In this document: piece by piece, positions 3,894 through 63,981 of the stretch
Numbering within the stretch: the stretch's first letter is position 1
Layout of the letters: every line of letters starts with the position of its first letter
Source: a virus
Virus record (IMG/VR): IMGVR_UViG_3300046318_000520
Coordinates: 63,704-127,703 of that record
DNA length: 64,000 nucleotides
Reading direction: 5' to 3' (one strand)
The notes under the pieces: generated by a model
Told to the model about the DNA's origin: nothing
The model's database searches: none
The model's input: the letters and a program-made list of their open reading frames with translations, nothing else
Translations under genes and position numbers: made by a program

Positions 3894-4307
3894 TTAGATA
3901 GTAATCAGATTACTAGCTTTGGTTTCTACAGGAGTCTCTGTTTTTTGTTCCAGGTATTGATTGTAATCAAATACATCAGAATTCAGAGCAATCATGTTGA
4001 TCAGTTCTTTGATCTCTTCTTTGGTTTCTATATAGTATTCATAATAGGTTTCCATTGTCTGGCGGGATTCTGCATAGTCTTTTCCACCGGGACGCTTGCC
4101 AATCTTAAGCATCTCAGGATCACCCAGGGCATTAAGCTTTGGTACCATCTGCAGTGTTTCTTTCTTTTCTTTGCCAATAAGAGCAAGCACACCTACTTCA
4201 AGGTCATAAATAGCTTCGTTGTATGGAGCTTCTATCGTGGCTGGGATCAGTCTGAAAGTTTTTTTGTTACCCCATGTGGAAGTAACCAATAACATTGATT
4301 TATTCAT
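3894..4307 (-). CDS. hypothetical protein
   Basis: 137-aa ORF. Confidence 0.7.
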   Translation of the reverse strand: MNKSMLLVTSTWGNKKTFRLIPATIEAPYNEAIYDLEVGVLALIGKEKKETLQMVPKLNALGDPEMLKIGKRPGGKDYAESRQTMETYYEYYIETKEEIKELINMIALNSDVFDYNQYLEQKTETPVETKASNLITI

Positions 4308-4330
4308 AAGTTCTCTATTTATTCTACAAA

Positions 4331-4891
4331 TTAAACACCTTTATTTAAGCTCTCCAAATTTTCTACAGGAATTTTTAAAGTTTCTTTGTCCATATCCCAG
4401 CTGTCACAGAGTTCTCCGATCTTTTTTAGGAGACTGGGATCTACGTTTAACAGCTTGGCATACACCTCGTAATACTTCTCAGGGTATAAATACGAGTCTA
4501 TGTATTTGTATTCTGAAGAAAGCTCACCGTAGTATTCCTTGATGGCCTTTTTGAGCATGGTACTAAGCTTACTGTATTTTCCTGTAAGAAAGTGAAACCA
4601 GTCATTCTGGTACACCTCAAAATCAAAAACATAAATATTGTAATCCTGGATGTGAATAACCTCTTTGTACAAGGGGTTACCTGTCAACATCTGGGATTCA
4701 AAGGCCAGAAATTCTTCTGTCTTATCTGCTCTATAGCTGACAATTAGTTTTATATCATCTGCTCCGTATAAGTCATGTAAGGATATATACGTACCAGAGG
4801 GACTAAATGCACTGCTTTTTTTAATACCTAAAACAGGGAACAAAAAACTTCTGGACTTTTGAAAGTACTTTCCATACAATGAGTCTATCAT
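4331..4891 (-). CDS. hypothetical protein
   Basis: 186-aa ORF co-oriented with neighbours. Confidence 0.75.
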   Translation of the reverse strand: MIDSLYGKYFQKSRSFLFPVLGIKKSSAFSPSGTYISLHDLYGADDIKLIVSYRADKTEEFLAFESQMLTGNPLYKEVIHIQDYNIYVFDFEVYQNDWFHFLTGKYSKLSTMLKKAIKEYYGELSSEYKYIDSYLYPEKYYEVYAKLLNVDPSLLKKIGELCDSWDMDKETLKIPVENLESLNKGV

Positions 4892-4900
4892 ATTTATTTC

Positions 4901-5932
4901 TTATAGAACTACGTTGCCTTTTGCAAACTCATAGGGCAGGTCGTAGCTCCGGTTCACATAATGCCATTCAGCTGTCTCTAGCACTGTCTTAAATCTATCT
5001 AACCACTTGTTAAGTGTGGTTTCTGTAACAGGAAAGGAATAGGTTTGGAAAGCCCGGTCAATCACTACAAAGTGAAACTTCACCTGGTACTTATCTTCTT
5101 CTATAAGCTTAAGGTACAATCCGGCTATCATAATCATGTACACCACACATTGTAACCAGTATGAATAGTATTCCACACTCTCCGGGAAGTCTTTCAGATC
5201 CTTAGAGGTTGTCTTGATATCATTGACATAGATGATCTTATTATCATGGTCTATTACAATGTTATCAATGATACCCTTCAGACCAAAGATCTTACCAGGG
5301 ATGTCCATCTGCAGCATCTGCTCGTTGATCACTTCTATGTTATCAAACTCAGAAACATCAGATCCAATAAGACTGCAAACAGCTTTGTTAGTCTTGACAA
5401 TTTCTACGGCACTGCTGCAAAACTTAAAGGTTTCTTCGTCAATGAGGGTTTTAGAACCCTTCATCTTAAGAAAAGACCAGTATATGAATGCTTCAGCTGT
5501 CATTATTTTCTCTAAACGCTGCTTATCAGTCTTAAGACTCTGGTGATAGTTCATATCCATCATAACATCCAGAATAGCTCCTTCAAATTCTTCTAGCTTT
5601 TCCCTGGGATCACCGTTGCGTGAAAGCTCTACATGATGACGGTACACTCTGTCTATTACAATACGGAGGTTACCGGATGGTAGTGTGGCAGGGGAGACCA
5701 TGAATTCTTTTTCAAACTTTTCAGGTTCTAAAAGCAATAGATGAATAAGCTTACCCTGAACCAGATGTGTATCCAGTCTTTCTTCTTTAAGTCCCAGCAC
5801 ATACATTTGATAAAAAACCTGGGGATTCCATATCAGCTTGTTAAGACTACTATAAGAGTAGTAGAACTTGCTGGCGTAAAATGATTTTTCCTGGATCTGA
5901 ATGCTTTCTTGCATTAATTCTTCTAGTTCCAT
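4901..5932 (-). CDS. PD-(D/E)XK exonuclease (RecE/ExoVIII-like)
   Basis: SYSSL, GKLIHLLLLEP, KGIIDN...DIKTT and YWLQ motifs. Confidence 0.8.
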   Translation of the reverse strand: MELEELMQESIQIQEKSFYASKFYYSYSSLNKLIWNPQVFYQMYVLGLKEERLDTHLVQGKLIHLLLLEPEKFEKEFMVSPATLPSGNLRIVIDRVYRHHVELSRNGDPREKLEEFEGAILDVMMDMNYHQSLKTDKQRLEKIMTAEAFIYWSFLKMKGSKTLIDEETFKFCSSAVEIVKTNKAVCSLIGSDVSEFDNIEVINEQMLQMDIPGKIFGLKGIIDNIVIDHDNKIIYVNDIKTTSKDLKDFPESVEYYSYWLQCVVYMIMIAGLYLKLIEEDKYQVKFHFVVIDRAFQTYSFPVTETTLNKWLDRFKTVLETAEWHYVNRSYDLPYEFAKGNVVL

Positions 5933-5954
5933 GATTTAATTTTCTTTTGTATGA

Positions 5955-6395
5955 TTATTTATTCTTTGATGTCCAGGCATTCATTGCCCTGTCACCATGT
6001 CCAATAACACAACTTCTGCAGAGAACAGAAACCCATCCGGATGTTACTCCCAGGTCTTGTTCTGATCCACAGTCCTGGCAGGTGTGATTACACATATGTT
6101 CAGCCATGCTGATCATACCTTCTACAATGTCGTCATGACCGTTGGTATAGAACCTGAGTCCTCCGAACTTTTCTTTTAGCTGCACACAAGTGACCTGCTT
6201 AGGCTTGAGCGGGTCATGCTTGGTATACCGGGTTGTCTTATCTATATAGTTTTGGATAGCACCACAGAGCTTGTCTATAATAGATAGCCAACCGGTAGGT
6301 GCATCCTGCCAATTACACTGTCCGGGATTACCTTCGTAGTCCTGAAAGATCTTGGGATACTTAGCTATTAGTCCTTCTGTAGATATCTTTTCCAT
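5955..6395 (-). CDS. conserved phage protein with C-terminal Zn finger
   Basis: QLKEKFGGLRFY motif; CQDCG...LCRSC. Confidence 0.7.
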   Translation of the reverse strand: MEKISTEGLIAKYPKIFQDYEGNPGQCNWQDAPTGWLSIIDKLCGAIQNYIDKTTRYTKHDPLKPKQVTCVQLKEKFGGLRFYTNGHDDIVEGMISMAEHMCNHTCQDCGSEQDLGVTSGWVSVLCRSCVIGHGDRAMNAWTSKNK

Positions 6396-6619
6396 ACACC
6401 TTGTTCTGTTAAAAATGTACTGATACGTTTAGCTGTAGCCTGGTCATAAGTAAGGGCTTCGGTCATTTCAATAAAATGATAAAGCTCATCTATCTTTTTA
6501 TTGGCAGTGTCTAGTTCTGCTATATAAAAATCAGCATCACTTTGCATGGCTTCATTATACTCCTGTTGGTAATCAACTGCAGCATCTATAGTCTCTACGG
6601 AAAACATTGGGTCTTGCAT
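6368..6619 (-). CDS. hypothetical protein
   Basis: 83-aa ORF overlapping the next gene. Confidence 0.6.
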   Translation of the reverse strand: MQDPMFSVETIDAAVDYQQEYNEAMQSDADFYIAELDTANKKIDELYHFIEMTEALTYDQATAKRISTFLTEQGVWKRYLQKD

Positions 6620-6621
6620 AG

Positions 6622-6861
6622 TTATTTTTTTAATTTATCAAGTATTTTTTGCATCTCAGCAAGCACCTTCCTGTTCATATGATGGGTGCTTTTAGGGTCC
6701 GGGTCCAGCTCAGAAAGCGTTCTGTATCTTTCTTTAAGCTTAACCAGTTCCATGTTGTTGTTCTCCATAGCATCAGCTACTCTTTTAAGTTGAATGGCAA
6801 TCTCTGGAAAGGTGTGCTCTATAAGCTTACGACCCATCATGGTCTCGTGTAATTCAGGCAT
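6622..6861 (-). CDS. hypothetical protein
   Basis: 79-aa ORF in operon. Confidence 0.6.
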   Translation of the reverse strand: MPELHETMMGRKLIEHTFPEIAIQLKRVADAMENNNMELVKLKERYRTLSELDPDPKSTHHMNRKVLAEMQKILDKLKK

Positions 6862-6863
6862 GT

Positions 6864-7250
6864 TTACTTTTTTTCTGTTTTAGTTTTTACATTATGACAA
6901 GCCTCACAGAGTACCTGCAGGTTGTCTATTTCACAAAAGAGTCTTTCTACAAACCCTGGTAGGTCTTGTGCACAATTAAGACTTCCTGCTGGGCAAATAT
7001 GATCCACGTTTATAAGTTTATCAGCGTACCATTTTAAACATTGGGCACACTGATACTCAAACTTTTGACGTTTATTTGGTCCTTTGTAGGGTCTCTTGGC
7101 TTCAAGCTTGCACTGTGTAATGGGTTTCCACCAGCGGGATTTTTGTCTTAAAGCAGATCGGATAAAGCTCCAGAAAGCAGACTCAGTCATAGTACCCGCG
7201 TTGCGGGTCTTGGTCACTCTTGGTTTTTTAGTAGTCTTGGCACGGCTCAT
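6864..7250 (-). CDS. HNH endonuclease
   Basis: CAQC...VDHI...NLQVLCEACHNVKT. Confidence 0.85.
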   Translation of the reverse strand: MSRAKTTKKPRVTKTRNAGTMTESAFWSFIRSALRQKSRWWKPITQCKLEAKRPYKGPNKRQKFEYQCAQCLKWYADKLINVDHICPAGSLNCAQDLPGFVERLFCEIDNLQVLCEACHNVKTKTEKK

Positions 7251-7308
7251 ATATGTAGAAGTTAGCTCTACAAATATAAGGAAGTTCTATATTTTAATAA
7301 TGTAGACT

Positions 7309-8289
7309 TTATACATACGCTCCTGTTTTTTTATTCAGCAGCGGAACCAGCCGGTTGCGTACTTCCTTGGCACCAAAATCCCTGATAGAATCTGAGAGAT
7401 CCTTGCTCATTGGTAACAGTAAAGGATGGATTTTATAATCATCCCTGTATTTTTCCATGGCTTTTATGCCAGGCTCGTCATTGTCAAACATGGCAATGAC
7501 AGTAGAATACATTTCTTTGTAATCATCTATAAGATTCTTACGTATCATACTGTTTTCTGAGTCAGGAGCTATGACATCTACGTTTAACCTCAGGCTTTTC
7601 AAGCTCATGATGTCTTTCAAACTGGAGGCAATCACAAGTGTGTGGTGGCCTTCTAGTTGTTCAGAGCCCTGTACATAGTCTCTGATCTTGAGAAACTTCT
7701 TATCCTGGGTTTTAGGTTGGTAAATCTTATATAGAGCACCATCTTCCTTGTAATAACCATAGATATAATTTCCTTTTATGTACAGTTCCTTGTCATCCTT
7801 GGTCATCTTGTAATAATCCAGTGGACGCACGTGATACTGGTCCAGTAATTTAGAACCAATATTAAACTGTGTCCAGTAATACTGATCCTGGCTGCTCCAG
7901 CTTCTAAAACAAACCTGCTCCACCTTATACTTAGAAGCCTGTTTGAATTCCTTCAAGTCGTAGCCTCCGTTATTATGCAGCACAAAGTCATTGTATTTTT
8001 CTACAATGAGCCCGCAGCTTTTATAAAAGCTCAGGCTGGTGATTTCCTTTACCAGGGTAAGATGGTCACCACCTATGCCGGTAGAAAAATCCTTAAACTT
8101 ATACTGCTGTTTTTTATCATCAAAGTAAATACACATACTGGGTGTTTTCTCCTTGGGATTAAACATGGATTTTACCTTGACGTCCTGGCCGCTGAGCTTT
8201 TCCTTTAGCTCACAAAAATGTTCAAACACCCAGGGTACCGGAACATCTTTGATATCATGTACTAGATTTTTTGTGTTAAACATAAACAT
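7309..8289 (-). CDS. DNA primase (TOPRIM)
   Basis: EKTPSM...FKDFSTGIGGD N-terminal domain; SLKD and FDNDEPG, KDLSD TOPRIM motifs. Confidence 0.85.
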   Translation of the reverse strand: MFMFNTKNLVHDIKDVPVPWVFEHFCELKEKLSGQDVKVKSMFNPKEKTPSMCIYFDDKKQQYKFKDFSTGIGGDHLTLVKEITSLSFYKSCGLIVEKYNDFVLHNNGGYDLKEFKQASKYKVEQVCFRSWSSQDQYYWTQFNIGSKLLDQYHVRPLDYYKMTKDDKELYIKGNYIYGYYKEDGALYKIYQPKTQDKKFLKIRDYVQGSEQLEGHHTLVIASSLKDIMSLKSLRLNVDVIAPDSENSMIRKNLIDDYKEMYSTVIAMFDNDEPGIKAMEKYRDDYKIHPLLLPMSKDLSDSIRDFGAKEVRNRLVPLLNKKTGAYV

Positions 8290-8368
8290 ATATTGAGAGT
8301 AAATAAAAAGAGGGGAAAGTAGAAACCCTCCCCGTAATCAAACAATTAAAAATGAACACAGACAGATT

Positions 8369-8980
8369 TTACATATCAAAATCATCATTGATCGGCTCAA
8401 AACTGCTCACAGTTTTAGTGATCAAAGGTTTAAAATGATATTGGTTTGACTTGTCAAACTTATCCAGTTTGGTTTCGTCAAGGTTTACAAACTTGTACCT
8501 TGGCAAAGAGAGTTTAAGAATGGTTTTACCATTGTATTCTTCTTCTGTTCCTTTAAGGAACCAGTAAGAATCCCTGCCTTTAAGTACCTTGATTGCTTGT
8601 GCAACCCAGTCTTCCAAAGAAGACGCAGAAATGTTATCCAGTTCAGCTCTCAGACCAAGCTCAATAGAGATGGCTGTAAGTTTAAACATGATCTCATTTT
8701 TCATCGGGTTGGTTTCATTGTGCTGATCTGTCCACATAGTAGCTGTTACTCTGCCTGACTGACCTTTAAACTTTGGACCATTCTCTTCTCCACGATTGAT
8801 AGACCAGCCCTCAAAGTTTTCCAACGCTGGTCCTTCCAGTGTCAGTTCTAAAACTTTCTTGTCACCTGCACGGCTGGTTCTCACCTGGCCATCAAAGATG
8901 TGGGCATACACTACTCCGGGCTGAAGGGATTTTTCTGATCCACCGGTTGTCTTTACTTCTTGTCCTTTTGTACTAAACAT
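8369..8980 (-). CDS. putative single-stranded DNA-binding protein
   Basis: Lies between primase and Sak4-like ATPase; acidic C-terminus INDDFDM. Confidence 0.5.
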   Translation of the reverse strand: MFSTKGQEVKTTGGSEKSLQPGVVYAHIFDGQVRTSRAGDKKVLELTLEGPALENFEGWSINRGEENGPKFKGQSGRVTATMWTDQHNETNPMKNEIMFKLTAISIELGLRAELDNISASSLEDWVAQAIKVLKGRDSYWFLKGTEEEYNGKTILKLSLPRYKFVNLDETKLDKFDKSNQYHFKPLITKTVSSFEPINDDFDM

Positions 8981-12871: not shown

Positions 12872-12888
12872 GTATATTATATTGTAGA
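12872..12888 (+). promoter_or_regulatory. putative phage late promoter motif GTATATTATATTGTAGA
   Basis: Heads the lysis cassette; recurs at 41297, 42663, 55138, 62588 and 22335(-). Confidence 0.6.
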
Positions 12889-17525: not shown

Positions 17526-18665
17526 TTAAAAAGGGTTACTAGCACTTCTTTCTTCTACAGGCATTTCTTCCATCATCTGGTCAAAATCATCGGAAGACTG
17601 ATAGTCTTGACGTGCCGGGTGATTAGCCAGGATATACTGCATGGAGAGTTCTATCTCACCAACTTGTCCTTCATCCATGATACCACGGGAAGTGTAAGTA
17701 TTAATAAGACTTTCTACTTCAGCAATAGCCAGCTCAAGTTGTTCATTGGTAGTGTAGCTGTGCAGCATCTCCACCTTAGACATTACTGCCTTAACTTCTG
17801 GACTCATCAGTTTGTTCTGCAGTTCAGAACCCGCTGACTGAGAAATCATGATCTGGGCAGTCTTTACCAGGGCTTTGTCTACACTGATGTCCCATATGTA
17901 CGAAACAGCTTTGGTAAGCGTTGGTACAAAAGTTAGTGTACGGTCAGAACTGTGCTGGTAACCTACTTCCAGGTATTTCTCCAGTTTGGTCACAGGTACT
18001 TCTACCATGTCCAGTTCTGCTCTGTTTGGTACACCAATCTTAAATGATTCTTTGTAATTACGGGCACCCTTGTTAAAATATTTGACAAGCTCACCTGCAG
18101 ATACGCGGTTTACAGTCATCTTTAACATAAAACGGTCCCAGAACGGAGAATCAGACTCTTCTTTAGGAATCTCATTACAAGTAGCTACGAATAACTTCCA
18201 CTTACAAGGGATCTTGTGCTTACCGTTAAAAAGAAACTTCTCGTTCATAACACCTAGCATGGCATTACGGATACCGGCTGATGCTTTATCTACCTCGTTA
18301 ATAATAACAATCTCTGCTTCTGCAATAGGAGCTGCCACTTCATACCTGTTTTCTGTAAACAGTTTACCAAGATCTGGCATACCCTTGACTTCTGAAGCCT
18401 TGGTACCCTCGTCAGTCTCCAGGATGTAGATCTTGTTGGCAAAATCCTGGGCGGTCATCTTACCGTCTTTGTTTAGCCAGGCTTTAGCATATTCTATAAT
18501 GGTCTTAGTTTTAGCTACACCAGGTTCACCTACGAGCAAACAAGGCAGACCGGTTGATTCTGCCAGGGCCAGCATTTTGAATACTTCTTCTTTGTTGATC
18601 AAAGATGTATCAATTGTTCTTATTTCCTGTGTTGTCTTTTTAGTTATAGATTTAATTTTTGACAT
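17526..18665 (-). CDS. MoxR/RavA-like AAA+ ATPase (likely start 18665)
   Basis: GEPGVAKT, INEVDKA, ATCN, WDRF; the longer upstream extension overlaps another gene. Confidence 0.85.
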   Translation of the reverse strand: MSKIKSITKKTTQEIRTIDTSLINKEEVFKMLALAESTGLPCLLVGEPGVAKTKTIIEYAKAWLNKDGKMTAQDFANKIYILETDEGTKASEVKGMPDLGKLFTENRYEVAAPIAEAEIVIINEVDKASAGIRNAMLGVMNEKFLFNGKHKIPCKWKLFVATCNEIPKEESDSPFWDRFMLKMTVNRVSAGELVKYFNKGARNYKESFKIGVPNRAELDMVEVPVTKLEKYLEVGYQHSSDRTLTFVPTLTKAVSYIWDISVDKALVKTAQIMISQSAGSELQNKLMSPEVKAVMSKVEMLHSYTTNEQLELAIAEVESLINTYTSRGIMDEGQVGEIELSMQYILANHPARQDYQSSDDFDQMMEEMPVEERSASNPF

Positions 18666-18711
18666 TTTTGGCTTGTGATTAAGTGTTTGTGAAATGTTTG
18701 GTCTAATTAGG

Positions 18712-19137
18712 CTAGAGGTTTGCAAAGGCTGAAGCAGAGTCTGCGTCTGAGAACCCTGTTCCGCTATGTCCTGAAAGATTTTCTTCAACAGGGAAGTTAC
18801 TGACTGGTAATACCTGCTCTGCTCTGCTGGATTTGACTGGCTCAGATCTAAGTACGCGTTCCACAGTAGCCTCATGTCTTTGTTCAATATCTGATACGGG
18901 GGCTGAGATAGTGCTTGATCCATCTTTGGTGTCATCTATAATGTTAAATACAGTAATGTTTGTCTCAGCATTTTTAAGAGCAGGATGTTTACGGATCATA
19001 GTGATCTGCTGGTCTTTAGCATTATATTTGTCCTGGATACTACCATATCCAACATCATCACGCTTCATCCATGTAAGGCCATTGTCTAAATCTTCTAAGA
19101 TCTGTGATACGTACAGATCAACTTTGTTTACTGCCAT
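18712..19137 (-). CDS. hypothetical protein
   Basis: 141-aa ORF. Confidence 0.65.
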   Translation of the reverse strand: MAVNKVDLYVSQILEDLDNGLTWMKRDDVGYGSIQDKYNAKDQQITMIRKHPALKNAETNITVFNIIDDTKDGSSTISAPVSDIEQRHEATVERVLRSEPVKSSRAEQVLPVSNFPVEENLSGHSGTGFSDADSASAFANL

Positions 19138-20574: not shown

Positions 20575-21678
20575 TTAGGCGTATTCAAAATGCTTGATTT
20601 TTTCCTGGTCAAGATCTTTAAGAGCTTCTTTTACCCAGCGTTCATCTACCGTGTTCTTGTAACACAGGATGTGTACAATAGCAGTGTCATCAGGGTTAAG
20701 TCTAAGTAACCTGCCTATACGCTGATTAGACTTTCTCTCATTACCATATGCATGCATGATTATTCCGGCCCGAAGATTGGGAATATTAATACCCTCGTTG
20801 AGCTGCATTACACAGGAGAGCTGAGTTATTTCATCTCTTTTAAACTTGTCAAGATTAATTTCTGAATCAGCATTACCTGAGTGATAGGAATCTTTACAGA
20901 TACGGTCTGCCTGGTCCTGCGTATTACAAAAGGCAATACACTTGTCCTCTATTTCTGATAATAGATTCTTAGTATAGTGTTCTTTGGTTCTGAAGTCCAT
21001 GATGACACGCATTCTCATGACAGATGATATCTGTTCTTCTTTTTTACTTTGTGCACGCATGATCCGGTCCGTCCAGTAGCCATAGCTTTTTTGCTCAGAT
21101 GTATAAAACGTACCGTTTTTTGTTTTAACAGGGAAGTTATTCTCTGAAGACAAAGAAAGATAGTGCACTATGATACGGTAGTCATTAAGGATCTGGTCAT
21201 CTACAGCATCGTCTGTTATATAGGTATATAGAACAGGACAATACCTGGAAACCATTTGACCTTTCTCACTTTGAGCATATCTGGGCGGAGTACCTGTGAG
21301 ACCCAGTATTCTTTCCTTATATTGCACAAGAAAAAGATTATGGGAATATAACAAACTATGACACTCGTCCAGTATGACAATGTCATAGTTAACGGGATCA
21401 AACTTATTCAAAGACAAATACGTAGTGAATTCTACGTTTTCTAAACTGATACCGAACTTTTCAGCATCTGATCTCCAGGAATCAAAGATGCTCAACTTAG
21501 GTGCTACGACTAATATCTTTAGCTTACCCATATTGAGATCCTGATAATGACTCATATACTTTAAACCAATAAGTGTTTTACCGACCCCCATGCTCACAGC
21601 CAAACCTGCTCTTTTGTATTTAAAAGCTACTTCTAAAGCCTCAGCTTGTATACTGTCTCTTGTATTTTTTTGTTTCAC
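20575..21678 (-). CDS. superfamily 2 DNA helicase
   Basis: MGVGKT, DECH, LTGTP, EGINIP, QRIGRLLR. Confidence 0.9.
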   Translation of the reverse strand: MKQKNTRDSIQAEALEVAFKYKRAGLAVSMGVGKTLIGLKYMSHYQDLNMGKLKILVVAPKLSIFDSWRSDAEKFGISLENVEFTTYLSLNKFDPVNYDIVILDECHSLLYSHNLFLVQYKERILGLTGTPPRYAQSEKGQMVSRYCPVLYTYITDDAVDDQILNDYRIIVHYLSLSSENNFPVKTKNGTFYTSEQKSYGYWTDRIMRAQSKKEEQISSVMRMRVIMDFRTKEHYTKNLLSEIEDKCIAFCNTQDQADRICKDSYHSGNADSEINLDKFKRDEITQLSCVMQLNEGINIPNLRAGIIMHAYGNERKSNQRIGRLLRLNPDDTAIVHILCYKNTVDERWVKEALKDLDQEKIKHFEYA

Positions 21679-22303
21679 ATAACTGTTTTTTAGTTATACA
21701 TTCTTGTTCTGGTCTTAATAGAAAATGATTTTTGTATCTACTAACAACTCTTTTTCCTTTAAGATTTATAGTACCGTTTACTACTGCTTGAGAATGGTTA
21801 AGCCCTGGATAAAGCTTTTCTAGTTTTTTACCAGCAGCTCTTTCAGACTCATATGTTCCTATACAGTTACAATTAATATCATAAATAACTACAGGTTTTT
21901 TCTTATCGTCATGAGTAGGATATTTAAGAAGTCCTAACAACTTTTGTTGTTTAAGCGTAGCTGAGGATTTTCTTCTAGACTCTTCAGAAGGAGTATTCCT
22001 AATAACCTCTAGCGTAATGTTGTATACTGGTTTTAAATTATTAATATACTCCTGCTCTTTTTGAGTCAGAAGTTTTACAGGAACTTCTTCAAGAATTAAA
22101 ACATCAAAATGGTCTTGACCATGCTTATTGTAGCTATTTTGGAGATACGGATTAGCATGAATACCACGTTGTAACTCTGATTGGTGGCGTTTTAATCTGT
22201 AATAAATATTCTTACTACTACCGATGTACTGCTTTTTGTTCTTGATATTAGTTATACAGTAAATACCACAGATTTTTAAGCCAAAAGATCTAGAAATGTT
22301 CAT
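21641..22303 (-). CDS. GIY-YIG homing endonuclease
   Basis: GIYCITN...YIGSS...R...H...E...YN; AT-rich; NUMOD-like C-terminus. Confidence 0.9.
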   Translation of the reverse strand: MNISRSFGLKICGIYCITNIKNKKQYIGSSKNIYYRLKRHQSELQRGIHANPYLQNSYNKHGQDHFDVLILEEVPVKLLTQKEQEYINNLKPVYNITLEVIRNTPSEESRRKSSATLKQQKLLGLLKYPTHDDKKKPVVIYDINCNCIGTYESERAAGKKLEKLYPGLNHSQAVVNGTINLKGKRVVSRYKNHFLLRPEQECITKKQLCETKKYKRQYTS

Positions 22304-22319
22304 AGGATTTAGGTTTAGT

Positions 22320-22445
22320 CTACAATATAATATACTTAAAATGTAGAACTTTTACAAATAAACCCATGGAAATTCCCAAACCGCAACGTTTATTATTAAA
22401 CGCTACGGTGAGAGCTTCCTGTTGGATCTCGTCTCTTTTAGACAT
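22320..22445 (-). pseudogene. stranded original 5' end of the SF2 helicase gene
   Basis: MSKRDEIQQEALTVAFNNKRCGLGISMG aligns with the helicase N-terminus RDSIQAEALEVAFKYKRAGLAVSMG. Confidence 0.8.
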
Positions 22446-22716
22446 ATTGTACGGTGTTTATACGAGCATGTAAGAATGCTGATACAATGATGTTTAAATA
22501 ACGAAGACAGGTTGTGTCAGCACGGTTAATAGCAGCATATAAATCATTATTACATACTGCTCGTACAAAATCCCCACCTGTCAACACACCATCTCTGTGC
22601 ATCATTACAGATCTGACAATATCAGTAAGATGTAATTCTGGTTCAACATGCCAATTGCTAATAATTTCTTTGGCTTTCTGCGTATATGCATCTCTAAGCT
22701 CATCGTAATTATCCAT
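22438..22716 (-). CDS. hypothetical protein
   Basis: GDFVRAVCNNDL..A..RAD motif typical of small phage proteins. Confidence 0.7.
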   Translation of the reverse strand: MDNYDELRDAYTQKAKEIISNWHVEPELHLTDIVRSVMMHRDGVLTGGDFVRAVCNNDLYAAINRADTTCLRYLNIIVSAFLHARINTVQYV

Positions 22717-23062
22717 TGTATAAAGATTTTAGAATTTCATCCCTTGATATAAAATCTACGTTTTGTTCCACCTCTTCCAGTGTAATAACACAGTCTACAG
22801 TTTCACCTTCTTCATCTACACCTACAATGAGCCCGTTACCTGCAAAAGGCTGGTGAGCTCCCTTATAAGTAAAGAAGTGATCACATGGTTTCAGAAGTCC
22901 TTCTTCATCAACCAGTATGCTATCCTGATCTGTAATATAATAAGCTGTTTCAACCATGTCTGCTTTTAAAGCATAATACCACTGATCCAGCATGTCTTTT
23001 TTATCATTGAGCTTTAGTTCTTTTACAGTTTTGTTAAATGCATCAATTAATATTGCTTTCAT
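22709..23062 (-). CDS. hypothetical protein (DUF3846-like)
   Basis: VDEEGLLK...FAGNGLIVGVD. Confidence 0.65.
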   Translation of the reverse strand: MKAILIDAFNKTVKELKLNDKKDMLDQWYYALKADMVETAYYITDQDSILVDEEGLLKPCDHFFTYKGAHQPFAGNGLIVGVDEEGETVDCVITLEEVEQNVDFISRDEILKSLYNG

Positions 23063-41122: not shown

Positions 41123-41333
41123 AAAAAAGATTTATAGATTTATTAATGGGGGTACAAGCACCCTATTAGTAAGGAGGGGAGTTGATGATTAGTACTCCCT
41201 CTCATCCTCCAATACACTATGGGGGTAGTTTGTATTTAGATTTATGCCGGGGGTATTTTTATGTAGAGATTAGCCGGGGGCTTTGGAGATATATCCGTAT
41301 ATTATATTGTAGACTAAACTACTACGTCCCCTT

Positions 41334-42580: not shown

Positions 42581-42696
42581 TTATGCTATCCACAATACGT
42601 GGATAATATGTAGAGGTTGACTACAATATATAGATTAAATTTGTAGAGTTTAAACTTATTTAGTATATTATAGTGTAGAACAACATCATTATCCCT

Positions 42697-63357: not shown

Positions 63358-63981
63358 ATGAGAAATCTGCTACAGGATAAGTCCAAATACTATAAGGTAT
63401 TTGCGGATGACGTGTATAACTCATTCCGTCAGATGCGTTATGGTATCCACTCTGGCCGCCACGACTCAGAATATGAGGTGGCCTCTATAAGAAAAGAACT
63501 GGTGGACTGGCAATCCAATGCAGATAATGATGCCCTTACACAGACCTCTATCAGCTACTATGGCTGGCTTCCTGTTACGTACACCAGTACAGATGAGTCT
63601 GTTGTCTTTAGCTCAGACATTAATGATCCATATCGTTATCTCAAAATATGCTCTACAAACCCTGTGAACGTTGGTGTGAGTTATAACTACGGTACCAACA
63701 GCAATCAAAACCTGATTGATGTTAATACAGGTGGTTGCGTGACCCGGATCAATTTAAACCCGGCTATTACTATTAATAATTCACAGACTGCACAATACAC
63801 CTTCCACCAGGAAGTTGCTTCTGCCACCTGGACCATTAGTCACTCTCTTGGTTTTGTACCTAATGTGCTTACCATGAATGAGTCTGGCCAGGAAATCATG
63901 GGAGCTGTAAGTTCTGCTACTACTACTACTTTGGTAATTCAGTTCTCTGAGCCTGTAACAGGATATGCATACTTATCTTAA
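63358..63981 (+). CDS. putative tail/structural protein
   Basis: C-terminal WTISHSLG..P.V...I.FS.PVTGYAYL domain. Confidence 0.6.
   Translation: MRNLLQDKSKYYKVFADDVYNSFRQMRYGIHSGRHDSEYEVASIRKELVDWQSNADNDALTQTSISYYGWLPVTYTSTDESVVFSSDINDPYRYLKICSTNPVNVGVSYNYGTNSNQNLIDVNTGGCVTRINLNPAITINNSQTAQYTFHQEVASATWTISHSLGFVPNVLTMNESGQEIMGAVSSATTTTLVIQFSEPVTGYAYLS

Follow-up and report, generated by a model that had tools for sequence, protein, structure and literature searches.

A GIY-YIG homing endonuclease cassette and the probable replacement of a helicase gene start in a lake phage

We analyzed the helicase locus in a stretch of viral DNA of 64,000 nt (positions 63,704 to 127,703 of the IMG/VR record IMGVR_UViG_3300046318_000520), hereafter called the window. 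The Walker A codons of an XPB-like helicase gene are preceded there by an insert of 776 nt, which is very probably a free-standing homing endonuclease cassette acting by gene-start replacement and neither an intron nor an intein. Besides a promoter-like motif and an endonuclease gene, the cassette carries a foreign version of the 31 codons with which the helicase begins (Q-motif region and strand beta-1); the native 28-codon start is left upstream as a relic. The carried version stops precisely where the insertion does, directly ahead of the Walker A codons; therefore, the helicase would be translated complete from a new GTG. This interpretation is carried by the anatomy of the locus, a clean insertion seen against a native relative, the foreign new start, the patchy distribution of the cassette, and a series of its decayed forms. 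The locus comprises the following features:

22438..22716, minus strand: upstream open reading frame (ORF) of 92 amino acids (aa), function unassigned; stop codon at 22440..22438
22362..22445, minus strand: stub, the native 28-codon helicase N-terminus MSKRDEIQQEALTVAFNNKRCGLGISMG, detached from its gene
22320..22361, minus strand: read-on of the stub frame into the cassette, 13 codons (LFVKVLHFKYIIL) and a stop (22322..22320); conserved left end of the cassette
21587..22362, minus strand: inserted cassette, 776 nt, before the Walker A codons of the XPB-like helicase
22319..22335, minus strand: promoter-like 17-mer GTATATTATATTGTAGA, 16 nt upstream of the endonuclease ATG
21641..22303, minus strand: predicted GIY-YIG homing endonuclease ORF, I-TevI-like, 220 aa, with its own ATG
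21586..21678, minus strand: replacement N-terminus of the helicase, 31 codons with a GTG start, MKQKNTRDSIQAEALEVAFKYKRAGLAVSMG
20575..21678, minus strand: SF2 (XPB-like) helicase, 367 aa, starting MKQKNTRDSIQAEALEVAFKYKRAGLAVSMGVGKT, GTG at 21678

The original prediction had described a 28-codon stub that overlaps the upstream stop codon and is homologous to the start of the helicase; its coordinates were confirmed. The stub ORF and the helicase shared 19 of 36 residues (BLASTP, E=1e-10), and the profile of relatives' N-termini matched the stub with E=7.6e-19, a resemblance beyond chance. The short ORF (22445..22320) has 41 codons in all, 28 of them helicase-like. Its ATG at 22445 overlaps the stop of the 92-aa ORF, which is the native gene arrangement: the identical overlap, ATGTCTAA, joins the upstream ORF stop and the helicase start in the native relative L104 (loci of relatives are designated below by L numbers). 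The 92-aa ORF itself matched neither a Pfam nor a PHROG family. The pentamer ATGGG is present at either end of the cassette (22367..22363 and 21591..21587), so the boundaries are ambiguous by 5 nt. The two copies are 776 nt apart, and the first 38 nt of the replacement N-terminus (21678..21641) overlap the 3' end of the endonuclease ORF; thus, the earlier description of 776 bp between two junctions, holding a GIY-YIG ORF and a new 5' end that overlaps it, was borne out.

The helicase was identified by matches to Pfam ResIII (E=2.2e-11) and Helicase_C (E=3.4e-9), with Walker A GVGKT at 21588..21574 (MGVGKT at 21591..21574, minus strand). Its nearest solved structure is the archaeal XPBII (6p4f, E=3e-15), and the alignment with it starts from residue 8 (RDxIQAEA, Q-motif region), which indicates that the N-terminus of the helicase is needed.

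The BLASTP alignment of the stub with the helicase extends beyond SMG (GLFVKVLHFKYI versus GVGKTLIGLKYM). Homology of the stub past SMG, into degenerate Walker A codons (GLFVK versus GVGKT), was considered and found unsupported: LFVK belongs to the left end conserved in 8 cassette loci, and the DNA alignment of the cassette-bearing L002 with the native L120 ends at ATGGG. The extension was therefore treated as cassette sequence, and the similarity after SMG is possibly due to chance. When the first and last 45 residues of 98 ORFs of the window were compared with all frame fragments, this stub was the only stranded gene end found, apart from one match of 14 residues, which was taken for chance.

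Contigs of three other runs bridge the junctions (X5 the left one, X3 and X4 the right one), and the arrangement is not an assembly artefact. The contigs of run X3 break at about 21071–21091 and at 22363–22435, with a depth of 6.6–8.4 between these points versus 21–27.7 in the flanks; the lower depth over 21071–22363 may reflect a mixed population, though contig depth cannot be read that way.

The 220-aa ORF encodes a predicted I-TevI-like GIY-YIG homing endonuclease. It matched Pfam GIY-YIG (PF01541, E=1.6e-12) and the PHROG homing endonuclease family (E=8.8e-21), and its residues 12–92 aligned with the catalytic domain of I-TevI (1mk0/1ln0, E=5e-13). Both motifs, GIY and YIG, were present in this alignment, as were the conserved Arg and Glu aligned with Arg27 and Glu75 of I-TevI. 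A NUMOD1 match (E=5.7e-4, 20.5 bits) was under the Pfam cut-off of 22.8. The ORF is single-copy in the virus genome (127.7 kb, 99% complete).

Four scans of viral and metagenome contigs (the best 80 loci of each of two large scans plus those of smaller scans) gave 182 loci, 172 of them with the helicase, which represent 132 distinct alleles. As the original prediction had anticipated for relatives lacking the insert, a stub-type N-terminus is fused directly to VGKT in the uninterrupted alleles, M[SNT]KR[DE].IQ..AL......KRCGLGISMGVGKT, which make up 119 of the 132. The remaining 13 have a replacement-type start (VKQKNTRD.., MKIKKTRE.., MIEKHTRE.., or MTSRKTRD..).

The insertion was seen most clearly in L002 (with the cassette) and L120 (native), whose helicase bodies are 92.6% identical at the amino acid level. 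By BLASTN, the stub of L002 (3232–3316) aligned with the gene start of L120 (3490–3574) at 91.8% identity, and the body (4088–8604) aligned with 3570–8086 of L120 at 85.8%. The extra DNA of L002 is 771 nt between two copies of ATGGG, and no native sequence was lost. The pattern is alike in the window and its nearest native relative, L104 (77% protein identity in the helicase body), whose helicase starts MSKRDEIQQEALDIAFKHKRCGLGISMGVGKT: the stub aligns with the start of L104 through ATGGGT. Megablast of the locus against GenBank phages gave no match, and the nearest isolates by protein, Flavobacterium phages, are only 31% identical, so no annotated relative is informative.

The stub is native and the new start is foreign. 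For the stub of the window, identity is 86% with the closest native N-terminus but 61% with its own replacement; the stub of L002 and the native start of L120 are 96% identical. Replacement N-termini are at most 64% identical to any native start, whereas that of the window is 89% identical to the replacement N-terminus of the L108 cassette. Stubs thus resemble the N-termini of their nearest native relatives, and replacement N-termini and endonucleases resemble those of other cassettes; judging from these comparisons, the replacement N-terminus travels with the endonuclease. Over 17 codons, the replacement starts of the window and L108 differ by five synonymous changes and one non-synonymous change; this mostly synonymous divergence indicates a working coding sequence. 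The stubs of the window and L002 differ at 13 synonymous and 8 non-synonymous codons, as would be expected if each had remained a functional start up to its separate insertion. The gene-end replacement proposed earlier is supported by this co-travel and by the end of the carried copy at the stub's ATGGG.

Identity between endonucleases exceeded that between helicase bodies in 19 of 21 pairs of cassette phages; for L009 and L139, the values were 94% versus 67%, and for a further pair, 87% versus 59%. A FastTree phylogeny of helicase bodies was built from 131 rows, excluding the Walker A residues and the 20 positions after them. The 13 cassette rows require nine changes on this tree, at least six of them forced by well-supported branches. 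Presence or absence of the cassette at one fixed site (119 empty alleles versus 13 occupied or scarred) is therefore discordant with the helicase phylogeny.

The same site also presents a decay series. The left end of the cassette, ATGGG followed by [TA]TT[AG]TTTGTAAAA, was kept in 8 of the 11 cassette-type loci examined. A full stub, with its start codon and open frame intact, was found in five allele groups (the window, L001/L002, L112, L011, and L005); in L009, L139, and L012, it is reduced to the six codons LGISMG and has no start codon; in three allele groups with an intact helicase (including L025/L108 and L033), it is absent. These states suggest that the helicase does not need the stub. 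The endonuclease gene was deleted in L004/L005, where the stub, the left end, and the new start are retained and about 24 nt separate the stub from the new start, and in L025/L107/L108 the endonuclease ORF is reduced to its last ~43 residues. L033 contains a LAGLIDADG-type ORF (198–926; PHROG endonuclease, E=6e-48; Pfam LAGLIDADG match slightly below the cut-off) in place of the GIY-YIG gene. This ORF ends in the shared tail of 11 residues, ...ETKTYKRQYTS, which overlaps the replacement start of the helicase; L033 represents an endonuclease swap at one site. Survival of the tail is explained by its double role, since it also serves as the new start of the helicase.

Other irregularities were observed in these loci. 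In L012 (3100–4360), the helicase is also split at motif VI (..NERKSSQRI / GRLLRLNP..) by an ORF of 316 aa with a NUMOD1 match; the C-terminal piece is 47 residues long and has neither a start codon nor a duplicated end. L139 (319–500) and L108 (3283–3470) share an extra ~200 nt, located after the upstream gene and before the cassette or what is left of it. In L006, another GIY-YIG/NUMOD1 ORF (145–1101, 318 aa) precedes by about 500 nt a helicase gene that is uninterrupted and has a native-type start.

The insert might instead be a group I or other self-splicing intron carrying the endonuclease, with the stub as exon 1 spliced to VGKT. The insertion is indeed nucleotide-exact, with T as the last base of the would-be exon 1 and G as the last base of the insert. 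Moreover, a paralogous endonuclease (49% identical to that of the window over ~150 residues) does reside in a true group I intron: in L005 (6850–8900, one contig with L004), a GIY-YIG ORF of 306 aa (7527–8447) interrupts the Walker A codons of a second ATPase at ...LLVGNPGV / AKTKTII.... Only in L005 is this ATPase gene split; 88 distinct loci and the window (18935..17526, minus strand) have it in one piece. Rfam recognized the intron of L005 (8211–8478, RF00028, 64.8 bits, E=8e-16), which served as a positive control, but found no Intron_gpI (RF00028) match at E<=10 in window positions 21300–22800, no match at the gathering score in the whole window, and no intron in L002, L012, L139, or L108. 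The final 93 nt of the insert code for a complete N-terminal homologue that has its own start and has changed mostly at synonymous positions, and the helicase is kept in the loci with a start-less six-codon stub, without a stub, or with just ~24 nt from the stub to the new start (L005). We therefore regard splicing as scarcely credible, and by these searches the cassette does not appear to be a group I intron. An intein is contradicted by the stop 13 codons into the insert in the stub frame and by the location of the endonuclease ORF in another frame, while a genes-in-pieces arrangement is contradicted by the full homologue of the stub held in the downstream gene. The original description of the element as free of intron and intein withstood these comparisons.

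A local tandem duplication of the helicase start could have preceded the endonuclease gene, which settled between the copies later; L004/L005, where the copies lie ~24 nt apart with no endonuclease ORF between them, would then be the ancestral state. This order of events is highly unlikely: L005 has the conserved left end TTTATTTGTAAAAGTAAATAAAAAG common to the endonuclease-bearing cassettes, replacement N-termini cluster together rather than with the resident lineage, the independent partial deletion in L025/L107/L108 leaves the endonuclease C-terminus, and the cassette is scattered over the helicase tree. It is likewise improbable, though less so, that the stub is kept as useful, either as a left homology arm for homing or because it is translated, in coupling with the upstream gene, into a peptide of 41 aa. 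An intact start codon and open frame in five allele groups and the preserved native overlap with the upstream stop agree with such a role, and Barth et al. proposed it for gene fragments in phage homing endonuclease gene (HEG) islands (PMC10055350). The loci in which the stub is cut to six codons or absent beside an intact helicase argue against it, and the read-on after SMG varies from 0 to 16 codons among loci, so there is no conserved peptide.

Gene-start replacement by a free-standing cassette thus remains the preferred explanation, and its cycle could be as follows. During co-infection, the enzyme, expressed from its own promoter, would cut an uninterrupted helicase allele near SMG/VGKT. 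By analogy with I-TevI, the cut may fall some 20–25 nt upstream of the insertion point, within the replaced region. Among 118 native alleles the Walker A codons hardly vary, and this makes them a good endonuclease target. The break would be repaired from the cassette genome, with homology provided on the left by the stub and the upstream gene and on the right by the helicase body, and the cassette would be copied into the recipient allele. We infer that the new allele would be protected by splitting of the site at the left junction and by recoding upstream of the right junction. Later, the stub and the endonuclease gene could decay, while the replacement start would have to stay.

Several observations weigh against this interpretation. 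The Walker A codons (ATGGGGGTCGGTAAAAC) do not differ between native and cassette alleles and are restored unchanged at the right junction; immunity would therefore have to come from the split left site or from the recoded upstream codons. The codons upstream of the right junction are GCT-NTG-AGC in 8 of 10 cassette alleles versus GGT-ATA-TCN in natives; immunity through this recoding is conjectural, as just the upstream half of a junction-spanning site would be recoded. In 2 of the 21 pairs, both with L112, the helicase body is more conserved than the endonuclease, and endonuclease identities of 70–94% mean that the transfers were not recent. The FastTree phylogeny contains many weak forks. 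The loci being best-80 selections, 13 of 132 is no population frequency. For the window's own strain, no allele without the interruption was found, and among the contigs of four DNA runs no joint omits the cassette; a 385-nt contig that matches the stub over 36 nt only derives from another phage with a native-type allele.

The original prediction had also placed a promoter-like motif in the cassette. A generic sigma-70 scan gave no support for it (13 sites versus 11.1 expected), while recurrence of the 17-mer at the left end did: GTATATTATATTGTAGA had four matches in the window versus 0.45 expected, a number reached in none of 100 shuffles, and six matches in the genome versus none for the control. 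The other copies in the window are as follows:

12872-12888, 41297-41313, and 42663-42679, plus strand: 17-mer copies, 18-52 nt upstream of like-oriented ORF starts

One copy precedes a PhoH-like gene, and variants of the 17-mer are present in other cassettes. It is probably a promoter of this phage family carried by the cassette, or another start signal. The recurrence of this promoter-like motif suggests that the cassette may change the timing of helicase expression, as had been proposed. A Bacteroidota-type promoter at the left end was dropped: TTTG-N18-21-TAnnTTTG, which we take to be the consensus, had 0 matches in the window versus 1.6 expected. A Shine–Dalgarno-like sequence precedes just 1 of 89 crude gene calls in the window, and by helicase the closest isolates are Flavobacterium, Cellulophaga, and crAss-like phages; both may hint at a Bacteroidota host.

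The insertion points in the helicase and in the second ATPase of L005 lie ~4–9 nt apart when the Walker A codons are aligned (GGTGTA/GCTAAAAC versus ATGGG/TGTTGGTAAAAC, the slash marking the insertion point; 13 of 18 bases alike by manual count). The L005 paralogue has a similar upstream module, TTTGTAAA...TTGTATATTTATA, and L005 carries both this intron-borne paralogue and the endonuclease-deleted scar in the helicase. One might speculate that a GIY-YIG lineage of these lake phages specializes in P-loop DNA and spares its targets in two interchangeable ways, by start replacement in the helicase and by a group I intron in the ATPase. The origin of the cassette would then lie in the cutting of a similar-looking P-loop site by an intron-type endonuclease, which was captured along with the start of a donor gene; for further homing, the stub would be the left homology arm. 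We consider this scenario rather doubtful, but if it holds, gene-start replacement would be a general third route into essential phage genes beside introns and inteins. As the paralogue occupies a true group I intron at a different P-loop site, interconversion of free-standing and intron-borne endonucleases becomes testable within one phage family.

Homing endonuclease genes are not known to enter the conserved cores of essential genes other than via an intron, via an intein, or by splitting the gene into two working halves. The locus points to a further route in a phage, in which the element brings a substitute gene start, and the many related genomes allow the whole life cycle to be followed at one site, from the empty state and a fresh insertion to decay of the stub and loss or exchange of the endonuclease. 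For annotation, a short orphan ORF beside an endonuclease gene could be a stranded gene start, and the starts of helicase genes could be chimeric. For phage evolution, an essential gene appears to exchange its first 31 codons horizontally, independently of its remainder. For endonuclease discovery, the target could be predicted from the locus itself, with natural alleles at hand that are putatively sensitive or resistant. No published description of start replacement in a phage was found in the literature covered, which lacked most subscription journals and supplements.

The known systems closest to the cassette are compared below. Free-standing GIY-YIG endonucleases of T-even phages, with intronless homing, are represented by SegA-G, of which SegE adjoins and targets the uvsW helicase gene (PMC2988022). 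Like the cassette, they are free-standing GIY-YIG genes beside an essential gene of DNA metabolism; they have their own promoters and spread by double-strand-break repair with co-conversion of flanking markers, as is presumed for the cassette. However, seg genes lie between genes, whereas the cassette interrupts a coding region and leaves the gene start in duplicate. Genes in pieces (mobE in nrdA of Aeh1, mobA in gene 60/39 of T4, and seg in gene 43 of Aeromonas phage 25) share with the cassette the intron-free insertion of an endonuclease at a critical conserved site of an essential phage gene (PMC2988022). There, both halves are expressed and reassemble, and nothing is duplicated, while the upstream piece left by the cassette is redundant and decays. 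In the HEG islands of ICP1-like phages, small genes are fragments of essential cargo, for which a role as recombination substrate was proposed (PMC10055350); remnants of essential genes beside phage homing endonuclease genes are thus a common trait, while the accessible part of that paper describes no precise in-gene insertion with a supplied replacement terminus.

Replacement of a gene end is known from two eukaryotic systems. In fungal mitochondria, mORF elements form gene hybrids in atp6 of Allomyces macrogynus and in atp6, atp9, cox2, and nad3 of Glomus sp. (PMC3630166). As in the cassette, an endonuclease ORF within the coding region is accompanied by a foreign, in-frame copy of the displaced gene end, and the native end, left beyond the element, is closer to relatives than the carried copy (91–98% versus 64–81% in mORFs, PMC3630166; 86–96% versus 64% here). 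Unlike the cassette, mORFs replace the 3' end (C-terminus), are mitochondrial, and are mostly of the LAGLIDADG type (PMC3630166). The phage cassette replaces the 5' end and must therefore also supply a start codon and translation signals; unlike in mORFs, its new start overlaps the endonuclease ORF. The WHO elements of Torulaspora and Lachancea yeasts home into FBA1, and their allele-specific cleavage was demonstrated (PMC7282813). They resemble the cassette in the lack of an intron and of protein splicing and in replacement of the target gene end at each integration, and differ in the end replaced (3'), the intein-derived nuclease, and the nuclear eukaryotic target; repeated homing of WHO elements builds clusters (PMC7282813), while this phage genome has a single cassette. 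Since the 5' end is replaced here and the 3' end in these published examples, as far as the texts consulted describe them, the cassette is a variant of the gene-end-replacing kind rather than a member of the mORF or WHO families, and 5'-end replacement in a phage would be a new form of this known type of homing element.

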